Positions 6,545 through 58,146 of a stretch of 64,000 nucleotides of DNA are shown here, one piece after another. Below the pieces are notes generated by a model. The model was not told where the DNA came from, did not search any database, and was given only the letters and a program-made list of their open reading frames with translations. Made by a program: the position numbers and the translations under genes. The number at the start of each line of letters is the position of its first letter. Within the stretch, counting starts at the first letter, position 1. This stretch comes from Candidatus Magasanikiibacteriota bacterium (GTDB taxonomy: Bacteria; Patescibacteriota; Patescibacteriia; Magasanikbacterales; UBA922), in contig JBAYJP010000002.1 in the NCBI GenBank assembly GCA_041665025.1, forward strand, positions 128,691 through 192,690, written 5' to 3'.

Positions 6545-7081
6545 AAGCGTAGCTTATGGGGTATACCCCCACATATTTCTACTAAGTATTTATCGGATAT
6601 GGACAAGAGGGATTAAAAGCCCACTATTATACAGTAGCTTCTATTTCGGCCGTATTTCTCCGTTGTTTCTCGGTACGGCCTATGGCTCACTCTCCGTGGG
6701 GTCAGTACTCTGCCCGTTGGGTAACTCTATATCGCCAAGCCAATTCAATTTAACGATACAGACGGTCTTGGTTTATCGGCGTAAGGAGTTCCGATTGCTG
6801 TCGGAACCGCATCAGGATTACCAAGTCCTATGATTTGATGGCGTCCACGGGGTGGCTCATAGGTTCGCCCACCGTCCCCCGCAGTATTTAATCCCTCACC
6901 CAATTTCCGATATTATTCTTGAAACTGAGCATCTTCTTTTTTGATTGGTTTATAAATTAACCCAACAAGCTGGACGAGCTTTATTGCTTGTTCTCGTGCG
7001 TCTTCAAGACCGATCTCTTTACCAAAGAGGTTCTTGTAGAGTGTTTGAAATTTTGCAACTTGCTCATCCGATACCATACAA

Positions 7082-11689: not shown

Positions 11690-11770
11690 AATAGTTCTGA
11701 CGTCTTTCACTAATTAAGCTCTCGTTAAAACTTCGCTTAACAAGCGTAGTTTTTTGTTTACCCTTACGTG
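11690..11770 (+). repeat. Copy 1 of a repeated sRNA-3'/terminator module
   Basis: GTTCTGACGTCTTTCACTAATTAAGCTCTCGTTAAAACTTCGCTTAACAAGCGTAGTTTTTTGTTTACC matches 14660-14735 and 16446-16490. Confidence 0.5.
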
Positions 11771-11795
11771 TGAGTAGAACAAGGCAGTAAAACTA

Positions 11796-11824
11796 TTGAC
11801 AAAAAGGAGATTTTATGCTATACT
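11796..11824 (+). promoter_or_regulatory. Consensus sigma70-type promoter reading into the GC-rich cassette
   Basis: TTGACA-N17-TATACT in AT-rich DNA. A structured leader (inverted repeats) follows, then the GGAGAGG RBS of the first GC-rich ORF. Confidence 0.6.
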
Positions 11825-11989
11825 TTTCGGTTCGATTATAATTCGAACTGTGCTCTTTTTAGCAAAAAATTAGATTAAAAAGACTTGGGTCACAAGAGAA
11901 CTAAATTATTTTAGTTTTGTTTTGACCCAGGTCTCGTTTGCTTGGTTGCGACGAGACTCCGAGACGGATAACACGGAGAGGTGATACCG

Positions 11990-13045
11990 ATGGACCGCAC
12001 CGAACTGACCACCCTCGCCACCCGCCTGCTCAACCCCATCGCCGGCCTGCACAAGCAGGTGATCGCCAGCTTCGACACCCCCCAGGTGGGCCCGTACCAC
12101 CAGGAGGGGAACTACCTGGTCGACCACCTCATCCGAATGTTCAACGAGTGGAGACGCCTCGCCGGCAGACCCGAGATGTCCGAGGTCCTCGAGGTCGCCC
12201 TCAACCAGGTCGAGTACCACATCGAAAACGGTGAGGACCTCATCGCCCTCTACATCGTCCTCCACGACGCGTGGAAGGGTGACGAGGTGATGCAGGTGAA
12301 GCTCGACGGTCTGCCCGAGATGACCATGACGCGCAAGTCCTGGGCCAAGTGGGTCAAGACCATGGGCTCGCAGGACAAGGACCCCGTCGACATCGCCAAG
12401 GCCAAGGGCATGCTGCAGGTCTCCTACGAAGACCACGCGGAAGTCGCTGCCGTACAGCTTGAGTGCTTCACCGAAACCCTCAAGCTGCCGGAGTGGTTCG
12501 TGCGCGTAGTTCTGCTGCACATGGTGGCCATCCAGCTCGCTCAGGTGAACGTCCCGCTCTACGAGCGGTCGTTCGCCAACCTGCCCGAGGAGGCCTGGCA
12601 GTTCCTGACGGTCGTGACCTGGCTCGACGCTCAGGGTGCGGTCGGGGAAGACGGCAACTGCAACATCTCCGGCTGGAACAACCTCATCTCGTCCAAGTGG
12701 GCCGCCGAGAGCTACAGGCGCGTCGAGCGCGCCATCAGGAAGGCGGACCGACTGGACGGGCAGAAGATGGAGCGCGCTCTGTCCGATCTGCGCAATTCGC
12801 ACGACATCTTCCACAACGAGACGCCGGATGAGTCCATCGACCGCCTGAAGCGCGAGTGCGCGCTGCCCAAGGTCACGGAGGCTGACGTCCGCAACGCGCT
12901 GGCCAACATCGAGGGCCTGGGCGAAGCGCTCATCGCGACCATCGCGGCCGAGATGGCCACGGACGGCAAGCTGAGCCCGGACACGGGCAGGGCGCTCGGC
13001 CGGTTCAACAAGCCGGTCCGCGACGCGCTCAAGAGCCTCGGCTGA
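11990..13045 (+). CDS. HD-motif (LHDxxK) putative metal-dependent phosphohydrolase encoded in very GC-rich foreign DNA. ATG at 11990 is preferred to the GTG at 11981.
   Basis: GPYHQEG...YIVLHDAWKGDE resembles HD-domain His / His-Asp motifs. Strong codon bias. RBS GGAGAGG 7 nt upstream. Confidence 0.6.
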   Translation: MDRTELTTLATRLLNPIAGLHKQVIASFDTPQVGPYHQEGNYLVDHLIRMFNEWRRLAGRPEMSEVLEVALNQVEYHIENGEDLIALYIVLHDAWKGDEVMQVKLDGLPEMTMTRKSWAKWVKTMGSQDKDPVDIAKAKGMLQVSYEDHAEVAAVQLECFTETLKLPEWFVRVVLLHMVAIQLAQVNVPLYERSFANLPEEAWQFLTVVTWLDAQGAVGEDGNCNISGWNNLISSKWAAESYRRVERAIRKADRLDGQKMERALSDLRNSHDIFHNETPDESIDRLKRECALPKVTEADVRNALANIEGLGEALIATIAAEMATDGKLSPDTGRALGRFNKPVRDALKSLG

Positions 13046-13187
13046 CGACCACAACCCCGAACCCCGGGCGAAAGGGGTGACAGTTCGGAAAGACGGACAA
13101 CTCTCGTGTGTCGCGTACGTTCGTACGTAGTGCGATAGTCGAGGAAATACGCGCGGGGAGCTGGATGCAAAAGCGTTCAGCACCCCG

Positions 13188-13255
13188 TGGATTTTCCGGT
13201 GAGACCGGAACTGATGAGTCCTTTAACGATAGAATACGACAGGACGAAATCCAAA
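13188..13255 (+). ncRNA. Type III hammerhead ribozyme (HH1)
   Basis: GGAU-U|UUCCGG-UGAGA-CCGGAA-CUGAUGA-GUCC-(20 nt loop)-GGAC-GAAA-UCC. Full conserved core. Predicted cleavage after 13194. Confidence 0.8.
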
Positions 13256-13407
13256 AACTGTTCTTTACAATTCGACATGGTTCTTAAATAAAAAAACGGA
13301 CGTGGGTCAACACATGGCCAGGAGTTCTCCTGGACAGATGGACCCCACGTCCGGAGGTTTTGGTCAACCACCGGATGAACTTCGAACGCACACACGGAGG
13401 TGCACTC

Positions 13408-14373
13408 ATGACCCAGTTCACGAATGCGGTGACGCACAGCGGCGACATGCACCCGGACGACGTCATGGCGGGTGGCTTCCTCAAGGAGACCAACCCCGGC
13501 ATCCGCTTCGTCCGCACCCGCGACAAGACCGTGCTCGAGGCGGCGATGTCCGACGACGACACCGTCGTCTACGACGTCGGCTTCGTGTACGACGAGTCGC
13601 GGAACTGCTACGACCACCACCAGCGGCAGAACGCCCCCAACCCCCGCCCGAACGGCGTGCCGTTCTCGAGCTTCGGGCTCCTGTGGCAGCGCTTCGGCCT
13701 GTCCTACTGCGAGCGCCTCGTGGCCAAGTACGGCAAGGACATCGACCCCGCCCAACTCCACGAGCTCATCGACCACGAGCTGGTCCAGGGCATCGACGTC
13801 ATCGACACCGGCGCGGTGGACAACCCCCGCTTCCAGCCGAAGGTCGGCGAGGTGTCCGTCGAGGTCAAGACCTTCGCGCTGGCCCTGTTCGAGCTCGCCC
13901 CCCAGCCGCTCCTGTTCGAGATCCCGCCTTACGACGAGGCCTACAACCAGGCCACCGACATCGCCGCGGTCTTCCTGAACCGCTTCGCCGAGGCCTGCCT
14001 GGCCAAGCTCTGCGGGCGTCAGCTTCTCGTGACCGGCCGCCGGGTCGAGGAGTGCGTCGTCGTGTCGCCCAAGGTCATCCCGGACTGGAGCGACGTCGTC
14101 AGCGCGGAGTTCCCCGAGACCCTCTACTACCTCGAGCCGGACACCAACGACCAGACGGGCAAGGCCTACATGCTGTGGCAGGTGCCCGTCGAGCCGCGGG
14201 GCTTCGTCGGCCGCAAGTCGCTCCCGGAGAGCTGGGCCGGCAAGCGCGGCACGGACCTCGTGGCCGTGACCGGCATCGAGGGCTCGGGCTTCTGCCACGT
14301 CGGGTGCTTCGTGGGCGGCGGCGAGACCCTCGAGGCGACGCTCGCGATGGCGAAGGCGGCCATCGCGGCGTAG
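13408..14373 (+). CDS. MYG1/UPF0160-family metal-dependent hydrolase homologue (GC-rich foreign gene)
   Basis: N-terminal THSGDMHPDDVMAGGFL and YDHHQ motifs recalled as the MYG1 signature. Start taken at MTQFTNAV (13408). Confidence 0.7.
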   Translation: MTQFTNAVTHSGDMHPDDVMAGGFLKETNPGIRFVRTRDKTVLEAAMSDDDTVVYDVGFVYDESRNCYDHHQRQNAPNPRPNGVPFSSFGLLWQRFGLSYCERLVAKYGKDIDPAQLHELIDHELVQGIDVIDTGAVDNPRFQPKVGEVSVEVKTFALALFELAPQPLLFEIPPYDEAYNQATDIAAVFLNRFAEACLAKLCGRQLLVTGRRVEECVVVSPKVIPDWSDVVSAEFPETLYYLEPDTNDQTGKAYMLWQVPVEPRGFVGRKSLPESWAGKRGTDLVAVTGIEGSGFCHVGCFVGGGETLEATLAMAKAAIAA

Positions 14374-14477
14374 CGCGGATCAAATCCGCGCAGAGGACCA
14401 TGTCGGCTACTGATTCAGTCGGCGGCGCAAGCTGCTGAAGGAGTCGTAGACGTCGGGGTGTGTATTTCACGCACCCC

Positions 14478-14538
14478 GGTCCTCTACTGATAATGTCAGT
14501 ACTGATGAGCCCATTTGTTTATGCAGGGCGAAAGGACA
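14478..14538 (+). ncRNA. Type III hammerhead ribozyme (HH2)
   Basis: GGUCCU-C|UACUGA-UAAUG-UCAGUA-CUGAUGA-GCCC-(13 nt loop)-GGGC-GAAA-GGAC. Full conserved core. Predicted cleavage after 14484. Confidence 0.8.
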
Positions 14539-14542
14539 AATT

Positions 14543-14575
14543 AAAAACCACTTATAGTAATATGAGTGGTTTTTA
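14543..14575 (+). terminator. Bidirectional intrinsic terminator (start of repeated module copy 2)
   Basis: AAAAACCACT-TATAGTAATAT-GAGTGGTTTTT. Confidence 0.65.
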
Positions 14576-14611
14576 ATTAGAAATAAGATTTATTATTGTG
14601 AATTTGCAGAG

Positions 14612-14640
14612 TTGACCAAAACTAAATTATGCGTTATACT
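14612..14640 (+). promoter_or_regulatory. Consensus promoter inside the repeated module
   Basis: TTGACC-N17-TATACT. The homologous copy at 16197-16225 reads TTGGCC-N17-TATATT. Confidence 0.5.
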
Positions 14641-14646
14641 CATCGG

Positions 14647-14724
14647 CAGTTTCAATACTTCGGTTCTAACCTCCTTTACTAAGGAGCTCTCAATAAAACT
14701 TCGCTCAAACAGCGTAGTTTTTTG
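14647..14724 (+). ncRNA. Candidate small RNA (about 80 nt) ending in an intrinsic terminator. A paralogous copy lies at about 16232-16316 and a 3' fragment at 11690-11750.
   Basis: Promoter about 7 nt upstream. Internal hairpin CCTCC-TTTACTAA-GGAG. Terminator CTTCGCT-CAAAC-AGCGTAG plus TTTTTT. Homologous 5' part (TCGGCAGTTT..GTTCTAA) in copy 2. Confidence 0.35.
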
Positions 14725-14759
14725 TTTACCCGCAAGTGTGAGTAGAACCGAGCTGCAGA

Positions 14760-15548
14760 CTATTTCAAACTATTCCATAGCATTTCCCATACAAACCGTT
14801 GGTTGTCTGCATTTGCTTGGTCTTCAATAATTACTAAGATCATACTGTCCCACGACACGGTCATGACGCGATCACCATAAATGATGGTATGACTTTTGAA
14901 AAATTTCCCATCTGGTAAAAATTTTACATCGCGCAATTCTTCTTTTGCCCGCTTAGCTTCCTGTAAGCCAAATTTAGATTTTTCTACAATTATCCTGGCT
15001 TTTATCCCACGTCTAATTCTTTCCTTAGTAAATTTCTTGTATTCTTCAGGAAAAATCGTTAGAAGTTCGGTTGATGTCCCATAGACCAAATTTTCTTTTT
15101 GGGTCATGTCGTGCCTTATCCTGTCCAAATAGGCCTGCCATACATTTTCTTTACCCTCATAATACAAGACCTTTGGTTTTTTATTTGTTTTATTTTGAAT
15201 GGCACGAAGCTCCGGTAAAAGATTAATAAAAGAAATTTCTTTATCATGTAACGATTGATAAATTTTGTCCGGATCAACTGCTTCCAGCAGTCTTTTTTTA
15301 CCACTCGGCGTTTGTTGAACAAGACCTTTGCTAATAAGATCATCCAAAACATCGTATGTAGACACACGGTGTAGGGATGCTACCTTAGCAATATTTTGTA
15401 CAGGCGCAGGCCCTAATTGTAGACAAGCCAAATAAACCTTAGCTTCTTTTATGCTTAGCCCAAATTCTTGAAGTTGCGTTGGAGTAATCATAGATGTTGT
15501 AGAGAAAATACTACATTTTAGTATATAACAATACCAACAATTAATCAA
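14760..15548 (-). CDS. TrmB-like winged-helix transcriptional regulator (paralogue 1 of 3)
   Basis: N-terminus LQEFGLSIKEAKVYLACLQLGPAPVQNIAKVASLHRVSTYDVLDDLISKGLV is the TrmB HTH signature. Confidence 0.7.
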   Translation of the reverse strand: MINCWYCYILKCSIFSTTSMITPTQLQEFGLSIKEAKVYLACLQLGPAPVQNIAKVASLHRVSTYDVLDDLISKGLVQQTPSGKKRLLEAVDPDKIYQSLHDKEISFINLLPELRAIQNKTNKKPKVLYYEGKENVWQAYLDRIRHDMTQKENLVYGTSTELLTIFPEEYKKFTKERIRRGIKARIIVEKSKFGLQEAKRAKEELRDVKFLPDGKFFKSHTIIYGDRVMTVSWDSMILVIIEDQANADNQRFVWEMLWNSLK

Positions 15549-16020: not shown

Positions 16021-16126
16021 TCCCGTGTATCTCGTCCGACTGGCTGGGTGCGACCACAAGTCAGCCCAGCCTCCTTGAGTGGTAATATTTATTACCTCTT
16101 GAGGAGGACTGACTTGTGTAAAAATA

Positions 16127-16260
16127 TAAAACCACTTATAGCAATATGAGTGGTTTTTGATTAAAGAGAATTATTTACTGTTGTGAATTTACCGAGTTGG
16201 CCAAAACTAAATTATGCGTTATATTCGTCGGCAGTTTGAGCACCTCAGTTCTAATGTTAA
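16127..16260 (+). repeat. Copy 3 of the terminator-promoter-sRNA module (about 85% identical to 14543-14675)
   Basis: AAAACCACTTATAGCAATATGAGTGGTTTTT ... TTGGCC-N17-TATATT ... TCGGCAGTTTGAGCACCTCAGTTCTAA. Confidence 0.55.
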
Positions 16261-16426
16261 GTACTAATGAGCTCAAATAAAATCACTCCAATTTGTTGGG
16301 GTGATTTTATTTTGTACTGTAAAGGGGAACCGAACGGGAAAGGGAGAAAACGGTAGTTTTCTCTTGCCGAGGAAAGTTCACGAAAACCCGAAGGTTTTCG
16401 TGGGAGGAGCCTAGGGCGACGAATGA

Positions 16427-16449
16427 GATTTCTCCTTGCCCGCTCACCA
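16427..16449 (+). repeat. Degenerate direct repeat of the tRNA-Gly 3' end (candidate distal att site of the integrated element)
   Basis: GATTTCTCCTTGCCCGCTCACCA versus tRNA 4058-4077 GATTCTCCTTGCCCGCTCCA. A 15-mer is identical and the rest differs by two 1-nt indels. Confidence 0.5.
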
Positions 16450-16542
16450 TAAAACTTCGCTCAAACAGCGTAGTTTTTGTTTACCGGTAAGGAGAAAACA
16501 ATCGCGGTCGAAGCGACTTGTGATTGTTTAAAAGAGGACTAA

Positions 16543-48804: not shown

Positions 48805-48973
48805 ATAGAATGCTAAGTTAAGATTAATACTAAAAGAAATAGACGAGGTGGATTATAGGGAAAAATGAGAGAAAAGTCAACGCCTCTTAAAATAAAATAA
48901 TCCGCAGTTACGGATTATTTTATTTCCTCTATATTTAGTAAACGCTAAACACATAGGGAATGTGCGCCGGCTC

Positions 48974-49231
48974 TCACGAGAGATACCGGCGCTGACAAGC
49001 CGTCCACGAGCAGAGCGATTTCGCAATCGCCCCGACGTAGAGGACGGGGGCCGTCCACGGCGAGAGTGCCCCCAGGACCGGGAACACTGCCAGGAAGGAT
49101 GACACGAACCCGGCCGTTGCAGTGATGAGCGCGAGGCCGACTGTGAAGAGCCAGCCCTGTGCGATGGACAGGATGGCGAGTACCACCCCGATCATCACTG
49201 CGGAACAGCCCACGCACAACATCGCCAACAT
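48974..49231 (-). CDS. Small (85 aa) 2-3 TM membrane protein in a roughly 320-bp GC-rich islet
   Basis: Own RBS AAGGGGGA 3 nt upstream of ATG. Compositionally distinct from the flanking DNA. Preceded (plus-strand side) by the terminator hairpin AATAATCCG-CAGTTA-CGGATTATT. Confidence 0.5.
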   Translation of the reverse strand: MLAMLCVGCSAVMIGVVLAILSIAQGWLFTVGLALITATAGFVSSFLAVFPVLGALSPWTAPVLYVGAIAKSLCSWTACQRRYLS

Positions 49232-49343
49232 GCGTCCCCCTTTCCGTGGAAGTTGACGACGTGGTCAGACTAACGTAAATTTTATTTTTCGTCAATCTTT
49301 TTGTTATAGTTTTTCCTGCAGTCTTGTGTTACAATATTCCCAT

Positions 49344-52037
49344 ATGCCCAATCAAAATAAAAAAACATTTGTTATTATAGATGGTAATGCAATTATCCAT
49401 CGCGCATATCATGCTCTTCCACCTCTTACTGCCAAAGATGGCACTATGGTAAATGCTGTGTATGGGTTTACTTCCATGCTTCTTAAGGTTTTAAATGACT
49501 TGAAGCCAGATTACATGGCAGTGAGTTTTGATGTGGCGGGCGAAACATTCCGTGGCAAAATGTTTGAAGGATACAAAGCAAAACGCGTTAAAGCTGGCCA
49601 GGAATTGTATGATCAAATTCCTCTTGTGTACCAGGTTGTGGAAGCGTTTGAAATACCTATATATATCAAAGAAGGATATGAGGCCGATGACGTAATTGGA
49701 ACCGTTGCTAATTATATAAAAAAAGAGAAATTAGGTATCAAAAGTATTATTGTGACCGGAGACATGGATTTGTTGCAACTGGTTGATGACAATATTACGG
49801 AAGTATATCTTTTGCGAAAAGGTCTTTCTGATTTTCAATTATATAATGAGAAGGCAGTTATCGAACGATTTGGGTTTGGGCCAAAGCATATTGTGGATTA
49901 CAAATCATTGCGTGGTGATAGCTCGGATAATATTCCTGGTGTGAAAGGAATTGGAGAAAAAACTGCAGTCGAGTTGATTACAAAAGTTGGGGGGATTGCT
50001 GATATTTATAAAAAGATTGAATCTTTAAAAGATTATAAGATCAGTGATGGTGTTATCAAAAAATTAATAGATGATAAAGACAACGCACTCATGAGTCAAG
50101 AACTTGCAACGATTTGCGAGGACGTGAAAGGACTGGAATTTGATCTAAAGAAATGCGAGAATGGACCATTTGATCGAGAAAAAGTAGTTAAGCTCATGCA
50201 AAAATTTGAGTTTTATTCCCTTGCTAAACGGATTTCCGGCAATGCAGAGGCAGGTCGCGATTTGTCTGTACGGACAGAGCAAAAAAAGAAATCTCGAAAT
50301 AGTCAAAAATTAATTATTGCGGATAAAAAAAATATTAATGATATTTTGCAGGAATTGAAGAAAGAAGAAGTCGTTGCGTGTAAAGAAATTTTGTCAGGCG
50401 CCGAGGTGCTGACAAGCGATTTGCTTGGTCTTGTGTTTGCAACAAAGAATGGAAGTTACTATATTGAGAAACCAACAAATGATATTTTTAAATTATTTGA
50501 GGATGAAAAGAAAATAACCATCGGCCATGATGTGAAGTCCCTAATAAAAGTGCTCAAGTGCTCAAGTGCTCAAGTGCTCAAGTGTCAATTGTTCGACATC
50601 ATGATCGCCTCGTATCTTCTCAATTCAAGTACACGCGCACATGATTTGCGTTCCATTGCTCTTAGGGAATTAGGAAAAGAGTTGTCAGCTGGCTCAGATC
50701 AAAGTAGTTTGTTTGGGGTTGATGCGCAGGTTGTGGCGAATGAACTTCAGATCATGCTCGAAGTATATGAAATATACAAGAAAAAACTTGAAGATGAAGA
50801 AAATCGAGGACTTTTTGATGATATAGAAATGGCCCTTGTGCCGGTACTTGCAGAAATGGAGTTAAACGGGGTTGCAATAGATGAAAAAATGCTTCACGAA
50901 TCTTCTGTAGAAGTAAATCAAGAGATAAAAACACTTGAAAAGAAAATTTGGCAAGAAGCAGGAGAAGAATTTAATGTTGCCTCTTCAGTTCAATTACGCG
51001 ATATATTATTTGAAAAAATGGGTTTACCACACGAAGGAGTAAAAAAAGGTAAAACAGGTCTTTCAACTGCCGCGTCTGAACTAGAAAAATTGCATGGCAT
51101 TCACCCAATTATTGAATACATAGAGGATTATCGTGAATTAGAAAAATTACGTAACACCTATATTGATGTATTGCCGACCTTGGTTAATAAAAAGACCGGA
51201 CGCATACATTCTTCCTTTAATCAGACAGTTGCCACAACTGGTCGTTTGTCTAGTTCGGATCCAAATTTACAAAATATTCCTATTCGAACTAAGTTGGGAC
51301 GCAAAGTTCGCGAGGCATTTATCGCAGAGCCCGGCAATGTGCTTATTGTTGCTGATTATTCACAAATTGAATTGCGAATTGTCGCCTCACTTGCGCAGGA
51401 TAATACCCTTATCGATATCTTTAAGCGGGGCGAAGACGTCCACACGGCAACCGCGGCAGTCATAAATGGTGTGCCACTTGATAAAGTCACCAGAGAAATG
51501 CGCAGTGCCGCCAAAGGAGTCAATTTTGGTGTGTTGTATGGTATGGGATCGTATGGGTTGTCTTCGCGAACGGGTATTACTCAGTGGGAGGCAAAAGATT
51601 TTATAAAAAAATATTTTGAAAATTTTAAAGATGTTAAAAAATATATTGATGGAACGCTGGCATTTGCGCGTAAAGAGGGATATGTGGAAACATTATTTGG
51701 CCGACGGCGATATATTCCAGAATTGATGTCAGGAAATTATCAATTGAAATCTGCAGGAGAGCGTATGGCAATAAATATGCCCGTGCAGGGTACGGCCGCA
51801 GATCTCATGAAAATGGCAATGATAAAAATAAGAAACAAGATACAAGAAACAAGATATAAATCCGACGAGGTACGAATGATTTTGCAAGTGCATGATGAAT
51901 TGGTGTTTGAGATCAAAAAAGGATTAGAAGATGAGGTCGTTAAAATCGTAAAGTATGAAATGGAGCATGTGGCGCAGTTGCGTGTGCCCATTGATGTGCA
52001 CGTGAGCGTGGGAAAAAGATGGGGGGAGATGAAGTAA
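49344..52037 (+). CDS. polA: DNA polymerase I (5'-3' exonuclease + polymerase domains)
   Basis: N-terminal FEN-like domain. Polymerase motifs A (DYSQIELR), B (RxxAKxxNFGxxYG) and C (QVHDE). Confidence 0.9.
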   Translation: MPNQNKKTFVIIDGNAIIHRAYHALPPLTAKDGTMVNAVYGFTSMLLKVLNDLKPDYMAVSFDVAGETFRGKMFEGYKAKRVKAGQELYDQIPLVYQVVEAFEIPIYIKEGYEADDVIGTVANYIKKEKLGIKSIIVTGDMDLLQLVDDNITEVYLLRKGLSDFQLYNEKAVIERFGFGPKHIVDYKSLRGDSSDNIPGVKGIGEKTAVELITKVGGIADIYKKIESLKDYKISDGVIKKLIDDKDNALMSQELATICEDVKGLEFDLKKCENGPFDREKVVKLMQKFEFYSLAKRISGNAEAGRDLSVRTEQKKKSRNSQKLIIADKKNINDILQELKKEEVVACKEILSGAEVLTSDLLGLVFATKNGSYYIEKPTNDIFKLFEDEKKITIGHDVKSLIKVLKCSSAQVLKCQLFDIMIASYLLNSSTRAHDLRSIALRELGKELSAGSDQSSLFGVDAQVVANELQIMLEVYEIYKKKLEDEENRGLFDDIEMALVPVLAEMELNGVAIDEKMLHESSVEVNQEIKTLEKKIWQEAGEEFNVASSVQLRDILFEKMGLPHEGVKKGKTGLSTAASELEKLHGIHPIIEYIEDYRELEKLRNTYIDVLPTLVNKKTGRIHSSFNQTVATTGRLSSSDPNLQNIPIRTKLGRKVREAFIAEPGNVLIVADYSQIELRIVASLAQDNTLIDIFKRGEDVHTATAAVINGVPLDKVTREMRSAAKGVNFGVLYGMGSYGLSSRTGITQWEAKDFIKKYFENFKDVKKYIDGTLAFARKEGYVETLFGRRRYIPELMSGNYQLKSAGERMAINMPVQGTAADLMKMAMIKIRNKIQETRYKSDEVRMILQVHDELVFEIKKGLEDEVVKIVKYEMEHVAQLRVPIDVHVSVGKRWGEMK
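50550..50588 (+). repeat. 8-nt tandem repeat (GTGCTCAA x4 plus a partial copy) inside polA
   Basis: GTGCTCAAGTGCTCAAGTGCTCAAGTGCTCAAGTGTCAA encodes KVLKCSSAQVLKCQ. Related to the GTGCTTAAGTGC motif at the rpmH promoter. Confidence 0.6.
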
Positions 52038-52109
52038 GGACATTTTAGTACGTTCCCTTCCCTAATAGGGAAGGGACAGGGAAGGGTCTTACAAATATTT
52101 AAGGAGGAT

Positions 52110-52490
52110 ATGCAAAAGCGGGACCGCTATATTGTTGATAAAAAAATAAAAAGACGAAGGAAGTTTTTGCGTTCTTTGCCTACGAAAGCTGAATATGTAT
52201 TGTGGCAAGAGTTAAGAAGAAAATTATTAGGATATAAATTTAGAAGACAGGTGAGCATTGGAAAATTTATTGTAGATTTTTATTGTCACGAGTTAAGATT
52301 GGTAATAGAAGTTGACGGGCCTATTCATGAGGATCAAATTGAATATGACAATCAAAGACAGAAATTTTTAGAATCACGAGGTTATATCGTGATTCGTTTT
52401 TTAAATGATGAAGTATTGTTTGATAGAGATGTTGTATTGCAGTGTATAGAAGATTGGTGTTGCATATTGGACAGAAGTATTTGTTCATAA
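52110..52490 (+). CDS. DUF559 (Vsr/restriction-endonuclease-fold) protein
   Basis: YKFRRQVSIGKFIVDFYCHELRLVIEVDGPIH. Confidence 0.75.
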   Translation: MQKRDRYIVDKKIKRRRKFLRSLPTKAEYVLWQELRRKLLGYKFRRQVSIGKFIVDFYCHELRLVIEVDGPIHEDQIEYDNQRQKFLESRGYIVIRFLNDEVLFDRDVVLQCIEDWCCILDRSICS

Positions 52491-52751
52491 GTTGGCAAGA
52501 CCTCCACCTGTCCTCCTCCTAAAAGGAGAAGGAACGTTTTTAAGAGAGTTTATTTATCAAAAAAACACCCTTTCCAGGTTGTTTTATTTTTTATTTCTCT
52601 GTCTTCGGGGGTGTTCACGTTGAACACCCCCGTCCTCCTAATAAAGAACATGTTGCCCTCACTTTCGCGGGGCACCCCCCGCCCCGGCCGGAGCCAGGGC
52701 GGGGGTCCCGCTCGGCGACTCAGTCACCAGGAGCAGCGCAGGCTCGAAGCG

Positions 52752-53195
52752 CTAGCTCGTGGCGCACTGGGTCGCCGCGTTGAGGCCGGACGCGTCGGCG
52801 AAGGCACCCACGATCATCACGCCGTTGCGCGCGGTGACCTCGGACGGCGCCATCGCCGCGAAGTAGTCGACCTGCGCCGAGTTGGCCTGCGCCGCCGACA
52901 TCGTCGCGGTCGGGGGCGCGTTCGCCGTCGTGTCGTTCGCCTGGTCGACCGCCTGGGTCGTGTTCGCCGTCTCGGCCGGCGCCACCTCGAAGATCAACGC
53001 CACCGCGTCGTTGTTGCGGTTGACGGCGACCTCCATGAGCGTCGCGGACGACTCGGTGAGCGGCTGGTCGGTGTCCTCGGCGAAGGTCGCGGCGACCTGC
53101 TGCACGGCATGCTGCGGGGTCGCGGCGGAGACGGCCGGAGCGGCGATGGCGGCGATGGCGAGCATCGCGGCGAGGAGCCAGAGTCTCTTCGACAT
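52752..53195 (-). CDS. Secreted Ala/Thr-rich protein encoded in a GC-rich islet
   Basis: Signal peptide MSKRLWLLAAMLAIAAIAAPAVSA. SD GGGAGGA before ATG. GC-rich structured 5' leader at 53196-53420. GC-rich hairpin terminator on the minus strand at about 52640-52700. Confidence 0.55.
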   Translation of the reverse strand: MSKRLWLLAAMLAIAAIAAPAVSAATPQHAVQQVAATFAEDTDQPLTESSATLMEVAVNRNNDAVALIFEVAPAETANTTQAVDQANDTTANAPPTATMSAAQANSAQVDYFAAMAPSEVTARNGVMIVGAFADASGLNAATQCATS

Positions 53196-53566
53196 GGAAT
53201 CCTCCCTGCATGCGGGCCGATCACGTCGGCCCGGTAGCGAAGTCCGTCCCGGGACGCGTCAGTCTCCAGCACCATTGGCAATGAATCACAATCTTTCAAC
53301 TTGGCCCCATTGGGTCGATGGCGCGTTATTACCTTTAATGCGCCGGTTGAGTTGAGAAGATTGCGACTGAGAGCCGCGGGCACCAAAGAGCAAAACGCGG
53401 GGACGTTATAGTCTATCCTATCAATCTCTCTCTCTCTTTACAAGACGTACAGGACTGTTTATCCACATGAGCTAAATTATTTTCAAATAAAAAACAACAA
53501 TTCTTTCATTGCTGTTTTTAATATTGTGTATTACAATAGGACTGCTTAAAATGTTATAAATCGCAT

Positions 53567-54349
53567 ATGTATAAAATAATTCTTGTGGTAGTTTCTTTAT
53601 TTATTCTTGGCTTTAGCTGTACTTCCCCTATTCAATATGTGCAAAACGGTAGGCAGGCGCTTAATGATTGGGATTATGTACAACAACATCTCGTCATAAA
53701 AGAACAGACAATAGTTGAAACAAAAGAAGGGTCGTATGATATAGAAATTACATATCCTACTATAACTGAGCCAGCTAAAGAAGGAACTGAAGGATTTAAC
53801 AGATTTATTGAATTTTTGCTTAAAAATAATTTTCTGCCAGAGTTTAAAGTAAGAGTTGGGGAGGCCGGACCTCTATTAGTCGCCGATGTGCCATATTCAC
53901 TTTCTGGTTCATACGAAATACTTGAATCAAAGCTTGATTATATTTCAGTTCGTCTGTTTTTTACTGAATATCTAGGTGGAGCCCATCCAGTGTCATGGAC
54001 CTACACTATTGATTATGAGTTAGATGTTAGACATCTAGTTGATCTTGGTGATATTTTTAATGTCAAAGAAGATGTGTATTTACCACGTTTGTCCGAATTG
54101 TCCCAACCATTGCTTGTATCTCAATTGGATGATATGGCTGACCTGCAATGGATTGAAAAAGGCACAAAGCCAGTAAAGAGCAATTTTAAAAATTTTAATG
54201 TAACCGCAGAAGGGCTCAAATTTGTGTTTGATCCATATCAAGTTGCGCCGTATGCAGCTGGCATGCAGGAAATTACTATTTTTTATAATCAGTTGGAAGA
54301 TCTAATCAATAAAAATGGGCCGGTCAAATATGTTAGAACGGCCAACTAG
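53567..54349 (+). CDS. Lipoprotein (DUF4163/DUF3298-like)
   Basis: Lipobox LGFSC. 260 aa. Confidence 0.55.
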   Translation: MYKIILVVVSLFILGFSCTSPIQYVQNGRQALNDWDYVQQHLVIKEQTIVETKEGSYDIEITYPTITEPAKEGTEGFNRFIEFLLKNNFLPEFKVRVGEAGPLLVADVPYSLSGSYEILESKLDYISVRLFFTEYLGGAHPVSWTYTIDYELDVRHLVDLGDIFNVKEDVYLPRLSELSQPLLVSQLDDMADLQWIEKGTKPVKSNFKNFNVTAEGLKFVFDPYQVAPYAAGMQEITIFYNQLEDLINKNGPVKYVRTAN

Positions 54350-54352
54350 CTT

Positions 54353-55327
54353 ATGCTCATTTATCTACACGGTTCAGACACATTTCGAAGCCGTCAACAA
54401 CTCAAAAAAATGATTGAAAAATTCAAAATAGACCGTGATCCACAAGGATACAATGTGGCTGTTTTAGATTGTGCAAGAGAAGACGCAGGTAAGATAATGG
54501 AACAGCTACTCGCAAGTCCATTTTTGGCAGAAAAGCGCATGGTCGTTCTTGAAAATGTATTATCAGCAACAGGTAAGAAAGATCTTCAAGAAGAAATATT
54601 AAGTCGTATAAAAGAGAAGCGTATTCCCGAAAGTAATGTTGTGTTATTTTGGGAAGGTGAAGGCAAAACAAAGACGGATGTGTCAAAAAAACTCCATGAA
54701 GTGTTATCAAAAGAAAAATTCGCGCAAGAATTTAGGGAGCTTGCAGGAGTTCAACTATCTTCGTGGATAAGACAAGAAATTGAGGCGCGCGGTGGAATTA
54801 TTGACTCTCAAGCACTATCCTATATGTCTACGCATGTTGGAGGTAACATGTGGTCGCTTAATTCTCTGGTTGATCAGCTTACCAACTATACTTCGTCAAA
54901 GATTACCCTCGGCGATGTACAATTATTCTTAGAAGAAAAATTTGACGATAATATTTTTAATCTAGTTGATGCAATTGTAGGAAAACAGCCCAAACAAGTA
55001 TTTCGCATGATACAAGAACAATATAGTAAAGGAGAAGATGCACAATTTATATTTGCCATGATTTTGCGTCAGATACGCATATTGGTTGAACTGCGTGATT
55101 TGTTTGAACGTGAAGATAATTTACAAAGCGATGCAATTGCCAAACGGCTTAATCTCCATCCGTTTGTTGTCAAAAAATCTTTACCTCTTATCAAGCGTTA
55201 TACTCTTTTACAGTTGCAATATATATATCAAAAGCTTCTTGAACTTGATATCAAAACAAAAACCGGCCAAGGTGGCCAGTCTCTGTTGTTGGATGTGTTG
55301 GTGGGGAGAATCTCGATTAACATCTAA
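54353..55327 (+). CDS. holA: DNA polymerase III delta subunit
   Basis: N-terminal MLIYLHGSDTF, length and low-complexity pattern typical of HolA. Confidence 0.7.
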   Translation: MLIYLHGSDTFRSRQQLKKMIEKFKIDRDPQGYNVAVLDCAREDAGKIMEQLLASPFLAEKRMVVLENVLSATGKKDLQEEILSRIKEKRIPESNVVLFWEGEGKTKTDVSKKLHEVLSKEKFAQEFRELAGVQLSSWIRQEIEARGGIIDSQALSYMSTHVGGNMWSLNSLVDQLTNYTSSKITLGDVQLFLEEKFDDNIFNLVDAIVGKQPKQVFRMIQEQYSKGEDAQFIFAMILRQIRILVELRDLFEREDNLQSDAIAKRLNLHPFVVKKSLPLIKRYTLLQLQYIYQKLLELDIKTKTGQGGQSLLLDVLVGRISINI

Positions 55328-55815
55328 AAGTTTCTTAAAAATTTTCCATCTCGCTCTGCCTCTTTAAGACTCTCGTCTTCTAAGTGTTCTCTGTGCATTT
55401 CATCTCGCTCTGGTTGAAAAGTGTCATGTTTTTGAATCTCACGAAATAAGACACGTATCTCATGGATATCTTGTTCTGTTTTGCATTTTTTTAGTAGAGC
55501 TTCAAAACGTTTTCGTTGCCAGTCGGAATACATTATAAGTTTGTGTAAGGATGGATACTTTTTTAGTAGTGAATTGAGTGTTGCAGTTTCGTCGGGGACA
55601 CAGTCTTTGAAATATTGGGAAATAAGATCTGCACCCTGGCCTCCTTCGCCATATGTTTCTTCAAATGTAGGTATCATAAATACGCTTGTGTCTAGTCCAT
55701 CCAGTAAGTCAGCCTCATATAAGTCGATTCCCGCACCGCCAATTTGGTTTCCAAAATAACCATCCCTGATTATTTTTTTGTAAAATATATTATATACTTC
55801 CTGTTCTTTTATCAT
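55324..55815 (-). CDS. Hypothetical protein
   Basis: 163-aa ORF. Its stop overlaps the holA stop region. Confidence 0.45.
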   Translation of the reverse strand: MIKEQEVYNIFYKKIIRDGYFGNQIGGAGIDLYEADLLDGLDTSVFMIPTFEETYGEGGQGADLISQYFKDCVPDETATLNSLLKKYPSLHKLIMYSDWQRKRFEALLKKCKTEQDIHEIRVLFREIQKHDTFQPERDEMHREHLEDESLKEAERDGKFLRNF

Positions 55816-55936
55816 AAAGTAAAATAGAGGTATTGATCCTATAGTTACTCCTCGGCTCGCCCCGAGTACTCGGGGTCTCGCCTGCGTCGTAAATAAAATC
55901 CCGACTTAATTCGTCGGGATTATTGTATCGTGTTTA

Positions 55937-56203
55937 CTATTTCTTTGCAACTTTGTTTTTCTTTATCATGAGGCGGGATAAGTAACGTCCTGCTGCGCCT
56001 GCTTTGATAACACCTTTTTTCGCGGCCTTATCAAGCTTCTTTTGTGCAAGTTTTATTTTGTCTTGTACATCGGCTGTACTTGTATCAATAGCTTGTTTGG
56101 CGTCTTTCAAAGCTTTTTTGTATGCTTTTTTGTAAATAAGATTTTCTGCAGTACGTCGTAAATCTTGGCGCAAAGCTTTCTTTGCATGTTTTTTAATAGG
56201 CAT
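55937..56203 (-). CDS. rpsT: Ribosomal protein S20
   Basis: MPIKKHAKKALRQDLRR... with an intrinsic terminator downstream (55880-55910). Confidence 0.9.
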   Translation of the reverse strand: MPIKKHAKKALRQDLRRTAENLIYKKAYKKALKDAKQAIDTSTADVQDKIKLAQKKLDKAAKKGVIKAGAAGRYLSRLMIKKNKVAKK

Positions 56204-56418
56204 AATAGTTTTGAGATTGGATAATTAGTTAATTTTTATCCGCCGAAGCTTTTGCGTAGGCGGAGAGAGCGTCGTTATAATACGTTATTTATCGCATTTT
56301 GTCAATAGTTTGCTTAAAAGTTAGCTAAGTAACTAAGTCGGCTAAGTTTACTAGGTTTATATTATTGAATATCAGCTTTTTAACTTAGGTACTTAGAAAA
56401 CTTAGCAAACTTAGCTAG

Positions 56419-57504
56419 CTATTCTTCCATCACAGGCTTTTCCAGTGCCAGAGGTTCAACAGTCTTTTCTCCTTCCGTTATCCTCATTACATCCTTATCA
56501 ATCTTCCCAAATTCTTTATACGCGCTATTGTACATGTTTACGGTAGTCGTGAGATTGTTTCCCATCTTCTTGAGATAATCTTCGTAGCTTAATAAGTGTT
56601 TACCCAGCTGTTCCACTTGTTTTCGTATTTCTTTTGCGCTTTCTTCAATTTGTAAAGCGCGTAGTCCCTGCATGACTGTCTGTAAATAAGCAAAAAAGCT
56701 CGTTGGGGAAACAATAATGACATGTTTATCTTTGAACGCATATTCTATCAGGTCTTGCGTATTTATTTGTATGGCCCCAACCTTGTTGATAAGCAAATCA
56801 TAGTAAATCCCCTCTGCTGGAATAAACATGAATGCAAAATCCATAGTATTTTCTTTTGGTTTGATATATTTTGCTGTTTCATCAATTCTATTTTTTAAAT
56901 CCCGTTTAAATTCCTTTTCCAGTTCTGCTTTTCTGTCAGGATCGTTTTCTGCTATTACGCGATTGTAATTTTCCAAACTAAATTTGGAATCAATCGGGAT
57001 AATTTTATCTTTGATAAATATCGCCGCATCTACAATATCGCCATCAGCAAATTTGTATTGCATTTCATATGCTCCTGGTGGCATCACATTTTTTAATACA
57101 TTTTCTAGATAGTATTCACCCAAAACTCCTCTATGTTTGGGATTTTTCAATACATTTTCTAATCCTTGTAATTGTTCTGCAACGCCTACAACCTGCTTGT
57201 TTGTTTCATCAAGCTTGGTTAGTTTTTCAGTTACGTCAGTGATGATTTTTGTGCTTTGTGCAAATTGATTTTGCATGGTCTTATGAATATTTTCTTGTAC
57301 GTCCCCCATTGATTTATAGGTATCAGACATTTTCTGGTCTACGGTTTTGTTGAGTTCTTGGATTTGTTGTTGGAGCATTAGGAACAAGTTTTGATCCCCT
57401 TCTCTGGGTTTGTTTATATTAGACATTTTTTTATACAACAAAAAAAGCGTAACTATAGTTGCGACGAGAAGCATTGATAAAATAATAAGTAGCCAGGTAA
57501 GCAT
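56419..57504 (-). CDS. rmuC: DNA recombination protein RmuC
   Basis: N-terminal TM, long coiled coil, C-terminal RmuC nuclease-like region. Confidence 0.8.
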   Translation of the reverse strand: MLTWLLIILSMLLVATIVTLFLLYKKMSNINKPREGDQNLFLMLQQQIQELNKTVDQKMSDTYKSMGDVQENIHKTMQNQFAQSTKIITDVTEKLTKLDETNKQVVGVAEQLQGLENVLKNPKHRGVLGEYYLENVLKNVMPPGAYEMQYKFADGDIVDAAIFIKDKIIPIDSKFSLENYNRVIAENDPDRKAELEKEFKRDLKNRIDETAKYIKPKENTMDFAFMFIPAEGIYYDLLINKVGAIQINTQDLIEYAFKDKHVIIVSPTSFFAYLQTVMQGLRALQIEESAKEIRKQVEQLGKHLLSYEDYLKKMGNNLTTTVNMYNSAYKEFGKIDKDVMRITEGEKTVEPLALEKPVMEE

Positions 57505-57723
57505 ATGTTTATTTGTTTCTTTTTATAAACATAAAGAAGAACACAGCAATTCCAGCTATTGTCATCGCACCAATCGAAATGATAATACCCAGAAGTCCTT
57601 CCATAGTGCGTGTATTATAGCACAAACAAAAAATCCGCCCAGGGCGGATGATTTGTCCTTTCTTTGGCCAAAAGGTTGGGTGCCAGTTTTACGTGATGGC
57701 GCACGCGAGAGACGAACTCGCTA

Positions 57724-58146
57724 TTATTCGTCATCCTCCTTAAGCCTGAACCAACTGGCAGGCGTCATAAAATCTTCACTGCCCTTGAACCAGACAGCGT
57801 ATCCTCCTCGGCACCCTCCCACCCACCCAGATTTATCGACAACGAGCTGGCGGTCTGGCCCCGCATTTGTCAGTTGACTCACTCTGACTATGAAGTCGAC
57901 CGTGGCTTGATCAGGGTGGTGTTCGTTTGTGACCAGACATTCACCTACTCTGAAAGGTGCGAAGAAGTTGGCTACCAGTTGGAAAATGCGTTTTCGTTCC
58001 ACAGCAAGTGTCGCAAGAGCCAAGATCGCTATTCCCAATCCGATGGCTCGCGGCAGTGGAAGCATCAGTCCCAGGAACGAGCCGATAAATGTCCAGAAGC
58101 ACACCATGAACAAGTGAACCACAAAACGTTTTTCCGACTTCTTCAT
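57724..58146 (-). CDS. Membrane protein (2 TM + soluble domain) in a moderately GC-enriched islet
   Basis: RBS AGGGGG before ATG at 58146. Intrinsic terminator ATCCGCCC-TGG-GGCGGAT plus T-run at 57640-57665. Composition differs from the neighbours. Confidence 0.5.
   Translation of the reverse strand: MKKSEKRFVVHLFMVCFWTFIGSFLGLMLPLPRAIGLGIAILALATLAVERKRIFQLVANFFAPFRVGECLVTNEHHPDQATVDFIVRVSQLTNAGPDRQLVVDKSGWVGGCRGGYAVWFKGSEDFMTPASWFRLKEDDE

Follow-up and report, generated by a model that had tools for sequence, protein, structure and literature searches.

A GC-rich single-gene unit with a conserved structured leader, probably a long-term resident of the polA-holA gap in a Candidatus Magasanikbacteria genome

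Between polA and holA, the window analyzed here (the whole 64,000-nucleotide stretch of a Candidatus Magasanikbacteria contig) carries a GC-rich islet, as a preliminary description of this DNA had proposed; its GC content is ~70% over positions 52640-53407 against 39% in the surrounding contig. Its content is a single minus-strand gene at 52752-53195, and its neighbor is a DUF559 endonuclease-like gene of host composition. The change in composition follows the parts of the gene unit. GC is 0.37 at 52491-52605 and 0.70-0.93 across 52676-53195, then 0.67 at 53196-53243, 0.55 at 53244-53407, 0.37 at 53408-53450, and 0.26 to the right of that. One end of the GC-rich span lies just inward of the 3' hairpins and the other at the base where pairing in the leader begins; the promoter and flanks are at 0.26-0.37.

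An abrupt step in composition at both ends, along with a protein known from this organism only, is what one would see if high-GC reads of another organism had been misjoined into a CPR contig, and an artefact at the junctions had been raised in the preliminary description. The junctions are real and do not reflect faulty assembly. Both are identical in three assemblies that derive from different assemblers or samples, with the window matching a 440-kb contig of ENA ERZ27249449 at 100% identity over 50567-57349 and a 7.6-kb contig of Logan SRR6484324 at 100% identity over 50567-55856. In addition, the insert is internal, only 0.8 kb long, and has the same genome on either side; it constitutes an entire gene unit, with limits that fall at a promoter and at hairpins; and a homologous unit was seen in two assemblies of another lineage. 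We give a chimeric origin next to no credence. Signs of mobility were also sought at the islet, and no integrase or transposase, target duplication, terminal repeat, or tRNA target was found. Specifically, flanking repeats did not exceed chance, no tRNA adjoins the islet, and shared terminal repeats were not found for this islet (islet 3), direct flanking repeats of ~100 bp being confined to islet 1. Searches of the islet against plasmids and phages (blastn), of the host-side junction 22-mer against metagenomes, and of the DUF3298 neighbor against genome contigs returned no match or relative.

The islet gene encodes 147 amino acids. Its GC by codon position is 0.64/0.53/0.97, with A or T at just 4 of 148 third positions, and because of this strong three-base periodicity we take 52752-53195 to be the coding frame. 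Overall, the gene has a GC of 0.71 and a GC3 of 0.97, compared to 0.32-0.38 and 0.26-0.34 in the host genes that were measured. The preliminary description had assigned a signal peptide and a Shine-Dalgarno sequence to this reading frame, and both assignments hold. By inspection, residues 1-24 (53124-53195), MSKRLWLLAAMLAIAAIAAPAVSA followed by A, combine a charged start, a hydrophobic core, and V-S-A at -3 to -1, a layout (MSKR / LWLLAAMLAIAAIAAPA / VSA-A) that fits a Sec (SPase I) signal peptide and is matched in the signal-peptide genes of two other loci, L002 and L004. The mature part is rich in Ala and Thr (27% Ala). The Shine-Dalgarno sequence GGGAGGA, on the minus strand at 53200-53206, ends 4 nt before the ATG. 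The homology search that had been suggested for the protein yielded neither a homologue nor a donor: there was only a self-match in 5.8 billion clustered proteins (word-indexed search) and again in 1.84 billion representative proteins (full HMMER scan), back-translated patterns recovered no homologue from JGI metagenome contigs, and no family was assigned by Pfam, NCBIfam, PHROGs, or PADLOC. In an exact look-up the ORF was absent from records because gene callers picked a 163-aa shadow frame. A single-sequence AlphaFold model was uninformative (pLDDT 42). By these searches the product is an orphan, and it looks like a predicted secreted, fast-evolving, Ala/Thr-rich protein without relatives.

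Downstream of the gene are the strong GC hairpins that had been noted before. The first (52676-52705, minus strand) begins 46 nt past the stop codon and has 13-nt arms that are 92% complementary (-37.7 kcal/mol, z -3.5). The second, at 52606-52632 and assigned to neither strand, is a perfect palindrome, CGGGGGTGTTCA-CGT-TGAACACCCCCG, that sits at the islet's outer edge (12-bp stem, 3-nt loop; -22.7 kcal/mol, z -5.2). On neither strand does a U-tract follow either hairpin, and on this ground we rejected an intrinsic terminator; the hairpin at 52676-52705 was not called by a terminator scan. Hairpins had been described at both junctions of the islet. Those on the left are present, but the right junction lacks one and is instead the boundary formed by the promoter and transcription start site.

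At that right junction, the minus strand reads TTGTAA (53438-53443) as a candidate -35 hexamer and, 17 nt later, TAGGAT (53415-53420) as a candidate -10 hexamer. An identical -35 hexamer lies at the same distance in L002 (6878-6883 of that locus), where a 17-nt spacer leads to TAACAT, and in both genomes the first paired base of the leader comes 9 nt after the -10 element. The candidate falls under the threshold of a strict consensus scan. With this geometry, TTGTAA-17 nt-TAGGAT is likely an AT-rich sigma-70-like promoter. The (TC) run that had been listed as a feature in its own right exists, but at 53425-53438 rather than 53435-53447, and it belongs to the 17-nt spacer (53421-53437, minus strand) of the likely promoter. 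The DnaA box TTATCCACA was likewise given with correct sequence and position (53459-53467), but its significance was not upheld, as two such boxes occur in the window where 0.74 are expected by chance. As only one of the two lies at this site, a DnaA-box cluster or origin was rejected, and the box, like the (TC) run, belongs to the promoter region.

The transcript predicted from this promoter would begin with a leader of ~215-220 nt, with a GC of 47-55%, that folds more stably than shuffled sequences (z -3.7 for the 220-nt leader). Most of it is taken up by a 164-nt rod, P1 (53244-53407, minus strand; MFE -68.9 kcal/mol), which is closed by the stem CGUCCC/GGGACG and contains an internal three-way junction with two small hairpins. 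The stem quoted in the preliminary description, GGCGCATTAAAGGTAATAACGCGCC, is present and corresponds to one arm of this junction. A second hairpin, P2 (CGGGCCGA-CGUGA-UCGGCCCG; 53213-53233, minus strand), was found by folding, and L002 has a hairpin of different sequence in the same place. When folded independently, the L002 leader adopted the same architecture of rod and three-way junction (z -4.6). Between the two leaders blastn reported no match at E<0.1, whereas Smith-Waterman comparison of the leader DNA gave a full-length alignment with a score of 28 against 11.1 +/- 1.9 in shuffles (z 8.9), and a covariance model (CM) built from the window leader alone found the L002 leader with an E value of 5.6e-06. 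Across 56 pairs, 12 had changed on both sides (0-2 in slid controls) and 95% of cells were paired (38-43% when slid), figures that describe one sequence pair in an alignment fitted to the structure. The comparison shows that the leader is genuine and has a homologue with a conserved predicted fold in a second lineage. The structured 5' leader of the preliminary description is thereby borne out, compensatory changes included, and the element can be regarded as a candidate new cis-acting RNA.

The same data bear on whether the rod might be an element of the DNA, such as a MITE-like imperfect palindrome or a protein-binding cruciform, with no functional RNA. A long imperfect inverted repeat (arms at ~53244-53320 and 53330-53407) and the weak CM scores of the reverse strand (15.8-16.8 bits) would be compatible with this idea. 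However, several pairs in the leader are G-U, which would be A-C mismatches on the opposite strand; these pairs favor an RNA of the minus strand, and the plus strand scored just 16-17 bits with the CM. Twelve compensatory double changes would not be expected in decaying transposon copies, the center is a three-way junction and not a simple palindrome, and the position of the element, 9 nt after a conserved -10, is constant in both lineages. Furthermore, the window contains one copy of the leader, a target duplication was not seen, and neither CM found a third copy in ~0.88 Mb of related loci. We consider a purely DNA-level element very improbable. In viral contigs, the leader pattern gave 76 matches, all at chance level, and the CM scored none.

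The preliminary description went further and suggested a riboswitch or attenuator of a donor lineage. Here the structured leader stands, but a known family and a donor do not. The Rfam scan that it had recommended was run with Rfam 15 on 52400-53700 and on the whole window, and no family reached its gathering score. At E<=10 the matches were at chance level only (the best with 21.6 bits against a threshold of 48), none of them on the sense strand within 53196-53420 and nothing relevant among them; those to Phe_leader lay outside the leader. An attenuator with a leader peptide was rejected as well, as the leader holds no U-tract hairpin and, on reading, no ORF preceded by a Shine-Dalgarno sequence. 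What could still be envisaged is a riboswitch, of a class not yet described, that would sense a ligand and gate translation by masking the Shine-Dalgarno sequence, a function compatible with the explanation we favor below. The three-way junction with its conserved unpaired stretches (e.g., AUCGACC) and invariant closing stem would suit such a role, and few bacterial genes have a UTR as long as 215 nt. In addition, the Shine-Dalgarno sequence is paired in both predicted folds: GGGAGGA partly with an upstream CUUC in the window, and GGGGGAA with CCACCC in L002. These pairings are weak, though, with folds only slightly better than shuffles (z -2.2 and -2.5, respectively). Against a riboswitch also stand the failure to match any Rfam family, a membership of two, upstream of an orphan secreted protein without a metabolic link, and the long, near-continuous rod, a form seen more in stabilizers and protein-binding elements than in compact aptamers. 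A riboswitch is therefore rather improbable in our estimation.

The second lineage just mentioned, represented by loci L002 and L003, is the nearest available relative, with a PolA 74% and a HolA 67% identical to those of the window organism. Its polA-holA gap is occupied by an islet of up to 0.75 GC with a minus-strand signal-peptide ORF, also of 147 aa and with a GC3 of 0.90. Homology between the window and L002 units extends over promoter geometry, the ~215-nt leader, and the DNA of the signal peptide, which aligns with a score reached by 1 of 500 shuffles. No homology was detected between the mature proteins (z -1.05; BLASTP nothing at E<=100). More broadly, the gap measures 1-11 bp in six loci (L009, L011, L016, L040, L041, and L077), and in numerous other lineages it spans 0.5-3.3 kb. 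Upstream of holA, the loci L004, L033, and L058 have signal-peptide genes of unrelated families that are GC-enriched and on the minus strand. Judged by this pattern of gene order, the adjacency of polA and holA is ancestral, the islet is an insertion, and the gap is a hot spot for the insertion and loss of variable genes in this clade. How often the unit was gained is less clear-cut. L009, a sister of L002 with a PolA that is 88% identical, has an empty and clean 5-bp gap, so two independent insertions would be about as parsimonious as one gain followed by losses. Should the window and L002 units have been gained separately, the argument for persistence would fail at this locus and would be left to a second islet of the window by itself.

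That second islet carries MYG1 (13360-14373), a phosphoesterase gene. In five CPR genomes MYG1 has a GC3 of 0.79-0.97 next to neighbors with 0.24-0.53. Its amino acid identity tracks that of the neighbors (81% vs 53-90%, and 68% vs 64-81%) among three genomes with shared gene order. Between loci L006 and L087, four-fold sites of the neighbors are 0.31-0.42 identical where 0.26-0.28 is expected, which is near saturation; at the four-fold sites of MYG1, A+T still amounts to just 5-13%. MYG1 was not found in viral contigs. Since a GC3 above 0.9 can persist through vertical descent in these genomes, high GC alone is not a sign of recent arrival. Two further islet families keep a raised GC at 30-40% amino acid identity. 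Translational selection was rejected as the cause on two grounds: third positions favor A and T in the measured host genes and in the ribosomal-protein gene L27 of L089 (GC3 0.28), and the shift in the islet genes extends to codon positions 1 and 2. Our search of the literature on GC-rich genes or islets in CPR bacteria found no precedent, and we know of no mechanism that holds one gene at a GC3 of 0.97 amid host values of 0.26-0.34. It is plausible, if not quite probable, that CPR of the Magasanikbacteria/Uhrbacteria group harbor a class of single-gene units whose GC3 of 0.8-0.97 is kept beyond synonymous saturation, implying an undescribed force that maintains GC. The units seen so far often encode orphan signal-peptide proteins, predicted to be secreted, but MYG1 is also among them, and the 147-aa gene with its leader would be a further example. 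Recombination hot spots, with runaway GC-biased gene conversion, may supply the force, as may selection for transcripts that are hyperstable or resist nucleases.

MYG1 is one of several reasons for which we doubt a recent horizontal transfer. Under such a transfer, the islet would be an unameliorated gene that arrived with its native leader and terminator from a high-GC bacterium that has yet to be sampled and that may be the host of this episymbiont; the islet of L002 would be a separate capture from a related donor, and the leader would be a regulatory RNA of the donor lineage. The GC3 of 0.97, the Ala-rich signal peptide, the Shine-Dalgarno sequence GGGAGGA, and the U-less G+C hairpin do resemble a genome of ~70% GC, and the orphan protein and the insertion into an ancestral adjacency that is empty in the sister of L002 fit as well. 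Yet no donor-like sequence was found in representative or clustered proteins, JGI metagenome contigs, plasmids, or phages. Two homologous captures in one gap, by lineages whose PolA proteins are 74% identical, would call for a site-specific mechanism, and neither an integrase, a target duplication, nor a terminal repeat was seen. Moreover, the promoter is AT-rich, host-like, and identical in geometry in both lineages, and the leader, at 47-55% GC, falls well short of ~70%. We judge recent transfer to be unlikely. The foreign donor lineage of the preliminary description is not supported either, given that a like unit occupies the same gap in another lineage related to Magasanikbacteria.

We regard it as moderately probable that 52606-53443 is one self-contained transcription unit, resident in this Candidatus Magasanikbacteria genome and long-lived in its GC-richness, not a fresh foreign insert. 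Read along the minus strand, the unit would consist of an AT-rich promoter, a structured 5' UTR of ~215 nt (the 164-nt rod with its three-way junction, the second hairpin, and the partly paired Shine-Dalgarno sequence), a signal peptide, an orphan protein, and two 3' hairpins, all seated in what appears to be an insertion and loss hot spot. The leader would act in cis on its own mRNA, most likely as a 5'-terminal stabilizer and/or, through pairing of the Shine-Dalgarno sequence, as a translational gate; ligand sensing would be a possible function. By analogy with the MYG1 islet, the extreme GC may not be the unameliorated trace of a recent transfer but may be maintained on evolutionary timescales by a force specific to the gene or, to put it more exactly, spanning the transcript. 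Selection on the nucleic acid (for example, for an mRNA that is hyperstable or withstands nucleases) could supply such a force, as could GC-biased gene conversion at a hot spot of recombination.

Parts of this scheme have counterparts in known systems. The ompA leader of Escherichia coli and the aprE leader of Bacillus subtilis are structured 5' UTR stabilizers that act in cis. Like them, the islet leader has a stable stem a few nucleotides from the predicted 5' end, upstream of the Shine-Dalgarno sequence of a gene for an exported protein; unlike them, it is much longer, with its 164-nt rod and three-way junction, has no sequence relation to either, and starts at a site that is only predicted. 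It shares with the riboswitches and cis-acting leaders of Rfam its length, conservation, multistem junction, covarying pairs, and maskable Shine-Dalgarno sequence, but it matches no family in Rfam 15, has two members, and precedes a gene that hints at no ligand. Genomic islets at recombination hot spots tend to have a higher AT content than the genome around them and to ameliorate with time. The polA-holA islet resembles them in its lineage-specific content between core genes, its presence or absence in sisters, its orphan product, and its atypical composition. It departs from them in being extremely GC-rich and free of mobility genes, and the composition of MYG1 is stable over near-saturating divergence. 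In vertebrates, hot spots of GC-biased gene conversion produce genes with "runaway" GC3. There, too, a GC3 near 1.0 is maintained at the scale of a gene in a genome of lower GC, at a locus with signs of frequent recombination; in the islet, by contrast, the GC-rich span coincides with the transcript and not with a recombination tract. To our knowledge, gene conversion of such magnitude has never been shown in bacteria.

Atypical composition is routinely read as recent transfer or as contamination of a metagenome-assembled genome, and segments of this kind are frequently discarded. In the present case, an islet of extreme GC is reproducible across assemblies and recurs in the same gap of a diverged lineage with a homologous, covarying leader. 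In MYG1, moreover, high GC outlasts vertical descent over which its neighbors come near synonymous saturation. If this is general, calls of horizontal transfer and contamination that rely on composition would need a caveat in CPR genomes, an undescribed gene-specific force would act on base composition in bacteria, and the orphan secreted proteins of CPR, which are candidate host-interaction factors, would be marked by a signature that is easily scanned.

Two further comparisons concern single genes of unusual form. The large G+C-rich (lgr) genes of Protochlamydia amoebophila are reported to be 5.6-kb leucine-rich-repeat paralogues tied to a conjugative island and, like the islet gene, markedly richer in G+C than their AT-rich host genome (PMC2216083); the islet units differ from them in being small, single-copy, mutually unrelated, and far more extreme in GC3. 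Finally, the islet recalls an integron cassette, being a single-gene unit with a palindrome at its 3' boundary. We rejected an integron cassette given that no attI or array was seen, that no integrase is present among the ORFs listed around the islet, and that promoter and leader are part of the unit itself; no more than two palindromes of this kind were seen. Their shared motif, GGGGTGT..CACCCC, is absent from 90 other loci; its two occurrences in the window, this one and one at islet 1's outer end (14455-14477), compare with an expectation of 0.01.

Our results are best accounted for by a resident, self-contained unit that would combine a promoter and a structured leader with the gene for an orphan secreted protein. 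The GC-rich islet with a minus-strand gene that a preliminary description had recognized was confirmed by the GC profile and by composition at individual codon positions. In a window with an overall GC content of 39%, GC is 0.37 to the left of 52605 and reaches 0.70-0.93 across 52676-53195, and on the leader side it is 0.67 (53196-53243) and 0.55 (53244-53407) before dropping to 0.37 and 0.26. The ORF at 52752-53195 (minus strand), which lies on a 278,561-bp contig of a Candidatus Magasanikbacteria MAG and whose product NCBI lists as hypothetical, has GC of 0.64, 0.53, and 0.97 at codon positions 1, 2, and 3, with G or C ending 144 of its 148 codons. On the basis of this pattern, we take it, rather than any of several shadow ORFs, to be the true coding frame. 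In line with the earlier proposal of a signal peptide, the N-terminus of its 147-aa product is organized like that of a Sec substrate, with V-S-A ahead of the cleavage point, and the Shine-Dalgarno (SD) sequence GGGAGGA (53200-53206) ends 4 nt from the ATG. The two strong hairpins downstream of the gene are as described, and neither is followed by a U-tract, while a DnaA box listed as a feature occurs once, which is not above chance. The neighboring plus-strand genes are polA (49326-52037), a DUF559 endonuclease-like gene (52110-52490), a DUF3298/PdaC-domain gene (53567-54349), and holA (54353-55327).

The junctions of the islet are supported by two further assemblies. An ENA contig (ERZ27249449, 440 kb) and a Logan contig of run SRR6484324, which encode the exact neighboring proteins, are 100% identical to the window across the islet and both junctions, and an origin as an assembly chimera is effectively excluded. 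The 147-aa product is not on record for these contigs because gene callers chose a 163-aa shadow frame. The ENA assembly (L169) and the window are distinguished by a single 8-nt gap at approximately 49102-49110, near the polA start, and in the former polA is split into ORFs of 430 and 478 aa; either the assemblies or strains differ here, or one of the records carries a frameshift.

The protein has no relatives in the collections that we searched. It matched only itself among 5.8 billion clusters, in an HMMER scan of all 1.84 billion representatives, and in JGI metagenome contigs, and it belongs to no family in Pfam, NCBIfam, PHROG, or PADLOC. A single-sequence AlphaFold model was unconfident (pLDDT 42). 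A comparable unit exists in a relative whose HolA and PolA are 67% and 74% identical to those of the window, represented by two assemblies (L002, ENA ERZ794998; L003, GCA_002869205.1). Its polA-holA interval carries a 0.7-kb islet with GC up to 0.75, in a genome with GC of 0.38-0.40, and a minus-strand ORF that is also 147 aa long, with the N-terminus MKRLLLLLLAMALAVAVAAPTALA. The mature proteins gave no BLASTP alignment at E ≤ 100 and a Smith-Waterman z of -1.05. The upstream DNA aligned over its full length (score of 28 versus 11.1 ± 1.9 in shuffles; z of 8.9), with homology extending into the signal-peptide codons at a score reached by 1 of 500 shuffles. Furthermore, both units share a promoter layout of TTGTAA, a 17-nt spacer, and TAGGAT or TAACAT, with 9 nt between the -10-type hexamer and the first paired base of the leader. 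The (TC) run of the window is this spacer; it lies at 53425-53438, ten bases to the left of where it had been placed. The secreted protein would evolve beyond recognition, with the 5' module conserved.

The proposal of a structured leader was borne out by comparison of the two units. Folded separately, the window and L002 leaders take on one common architecture (z of -3.7 and -4.6), with a long, interrupted rod closed by the stem CGUCCC/GGGACG, a second hairpin, and a partly paired SD; the fold also includes an internal three-way junction that bears two small hairpins, one being the stem originally quoted. A covariance model built from the window leader alone recovered the L002 leader at 37 bits (E of 5.6e-06) and nothing else within 0.85 Mb. 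When the two leaders were aligned to the model, 95% of cells paired and 12 of 56 pairs had changed on both sides, versus 38-43% pairing and 0-2 such changes in controls with shifted partners. Several G-U pairs and a poor opposite-strand score favor an RNA transcribed from the same strand as the gene. When the model was built from both sequences, it detected no additional member in related loci (0.88 Mb) or among viral contigs selected by pattern. Conservation of the structure is therefore supported, if thinly. The leader may serve as a 5' stabilizer and/or a translational gate, and it might possibly sense a ligand. It matches no Rfam family, and the suggested membership of a known riboswitch class is not supported.

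The location of the unit appears to be a hot spot for insertion. Among 80 species representatives, six lineages have polA immediately before holA, 1-11 bp apart, and in many others 0.5-3.3 kb separates the two genes. The gap is 5 bp in L009, whose PolA and HolA are 88% identical to those of L002, versus 1,021 bp in L002, with no target duplication in this comparison. One relative (L007) has an AT-rich membrane-protein gene in the gap, and three (L004, L033, and L058) have GC-enriched signal-peptide genes of other, unrelated kinds on the minus strand upstream of holA. From the variation in gap size, the empty L009 site, and these unrelated genes, we infer that the units were inserted at a variable site. 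Those of the window and L002 may go back to one insertion with subsequent losses, or to separate insertions of two related units. The DUF559 gene, which is Vsr-like and homing-endonuclease-like, matches the host in composition, is situated about 150 bp from the islet, and is absent from L002; speculatively, such a free-standing endonuclease could promote local recombination.

The unit would also belong to a wider set of persistently GC-rich CPR genes. A larger islet in the window (islet 1, 11900-14530) holds two plus-strand genes separated by an AT-rich promoter-like stretch: a 354-aa ORF (11981-13045; GC3 of 0.92) and a MYG1/UPF0160-family gene (13360-14373; GC3 of 0.97). The former matches no Pfam or NCBIfam family, and its weak Cas3 matches (E of 0.006) possibly cover an HD-like domain. 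The closest MYG1 homologs (47-62% identity) are CPR wherever the source gives a name. In every genome examined, MYG1 forms a single-gene GC-rich islet with GC3 of 0.79-0.93 (L006 from Uhrbacteria, 5860-6979; L087, 8001-8993; L090, 3436-4416; L089, 6813-8981), surrounded by genes with GC3 of 0.24-0.53, at a genome GC of 0.43-0.47 in these Uhrbacteria-like and other CPR organisms. In L089, a 205-aa gene upstream of MYG1 is GC-rich as well, with a GIY-YIG gene about 0.6 kb before. In the three genomes whose gene order is shared, the identity of MYG1 follows that of its neighbors (81% versus 53-90%; 68% versus 64-81%), which indicates vertical descent. Between L006 and L087, four-fold sites of the neighbors are close to saturation (0.31-0.42 identical versus 0.26-0.28 expected), and only 5-13% of those in MYG1 are A or T. 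Two other islet families have kept raised GC at 30-40% protein identity. In these genomes, high GC can therefore persist stably as a property of individual genes.

These observations bear on the main rival, recent horizontal transfer from an unsampled donor. High GC might be read as a mark of recent arrival, but evidence from the same window contradicts this. The islet DNA matched no plasmid or phage and the protein matched only itself, so that the foreign donor lineage envisaged at first is not supported; we consider recent transfer unlikely. For the target unit, the GC-rich span coincides with the predicted transcript, with AT-rich promoter and flanks. Translational selection was rejected as the cause, since the host genes measured and an L089 ribosomal-protein gene are AT-rich at third positions, and since codon positions 1 and 2 are shifted too. 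Candidate causes would be selection acting on the transcript, or GC-biased conversion where recombination is frequent (a hot spot). Full-text literature searches found no description of such GC-richness in CPR bacteria.

None of ten further islet proteins scanned had a Pfam family, and many had signal peptides. A signal-peptide family of 160-166 aa retains elevated GC (0.55-0.63) at 25-34% identity in several genomes (L002, 11250-11741, between RmuC and TrmB; L063, 2446-2928; L038, 2521-2991), and the window has a moderately GC-rich stretch at 57600-57950 that is comparable in composition. Between the H+-pyrophosphatase gene and polA, an islet at 48945-49260 contains an 85-aa hydrophobic membrane ORF without a family (48974-49231, minus strand; GC3 of 0.81) and, at its 3' side, the hairpin GCGCCGGCTCTC-ACG-AGAGATACCGGCGC. 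Islet 1 is flanked by direct repeats of about 100 bp (11694-11797 and 14663-14764; 79% identical), which have a further incomplete copy at 16442-16491, and 14538-14709 resembles 16122-16291 at 80%. The hairpin motif GGGGTGT...CACCCC, expected 0.01 times by chance, occurs in the window only at 14455-14477 (islet 1) and 52608-52630 (target islet), both gene-distal boundaries, followed on the plus strand by G(G)TCCTC. Absent from 90 other loci, it could mark 3' ends or recombination sites in a way specific to this genome.

Finally, an Rfam RNA and a pair of candidate ncRNAs deserve mention. The window contains a LOOT RNA (Rfam RF03000; 8486-8604, plus strand) at 81.3 bits, with a gathering threshold of 46.4. 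In a further lineage (L029, 4340-4903), the polA-holA gap is occupied by two GC-rich non-coding units in tandem, each about 250-300 nt long, neither with a 3-periodic ORF or an Rfam match. These candidate paralogous ncRNAs share the 5' hairpin GCGCCyCCGACUCCrCC...GGyGGAGCCGGAGGGC, and an AT-type terminator-like hairpin follows the first.
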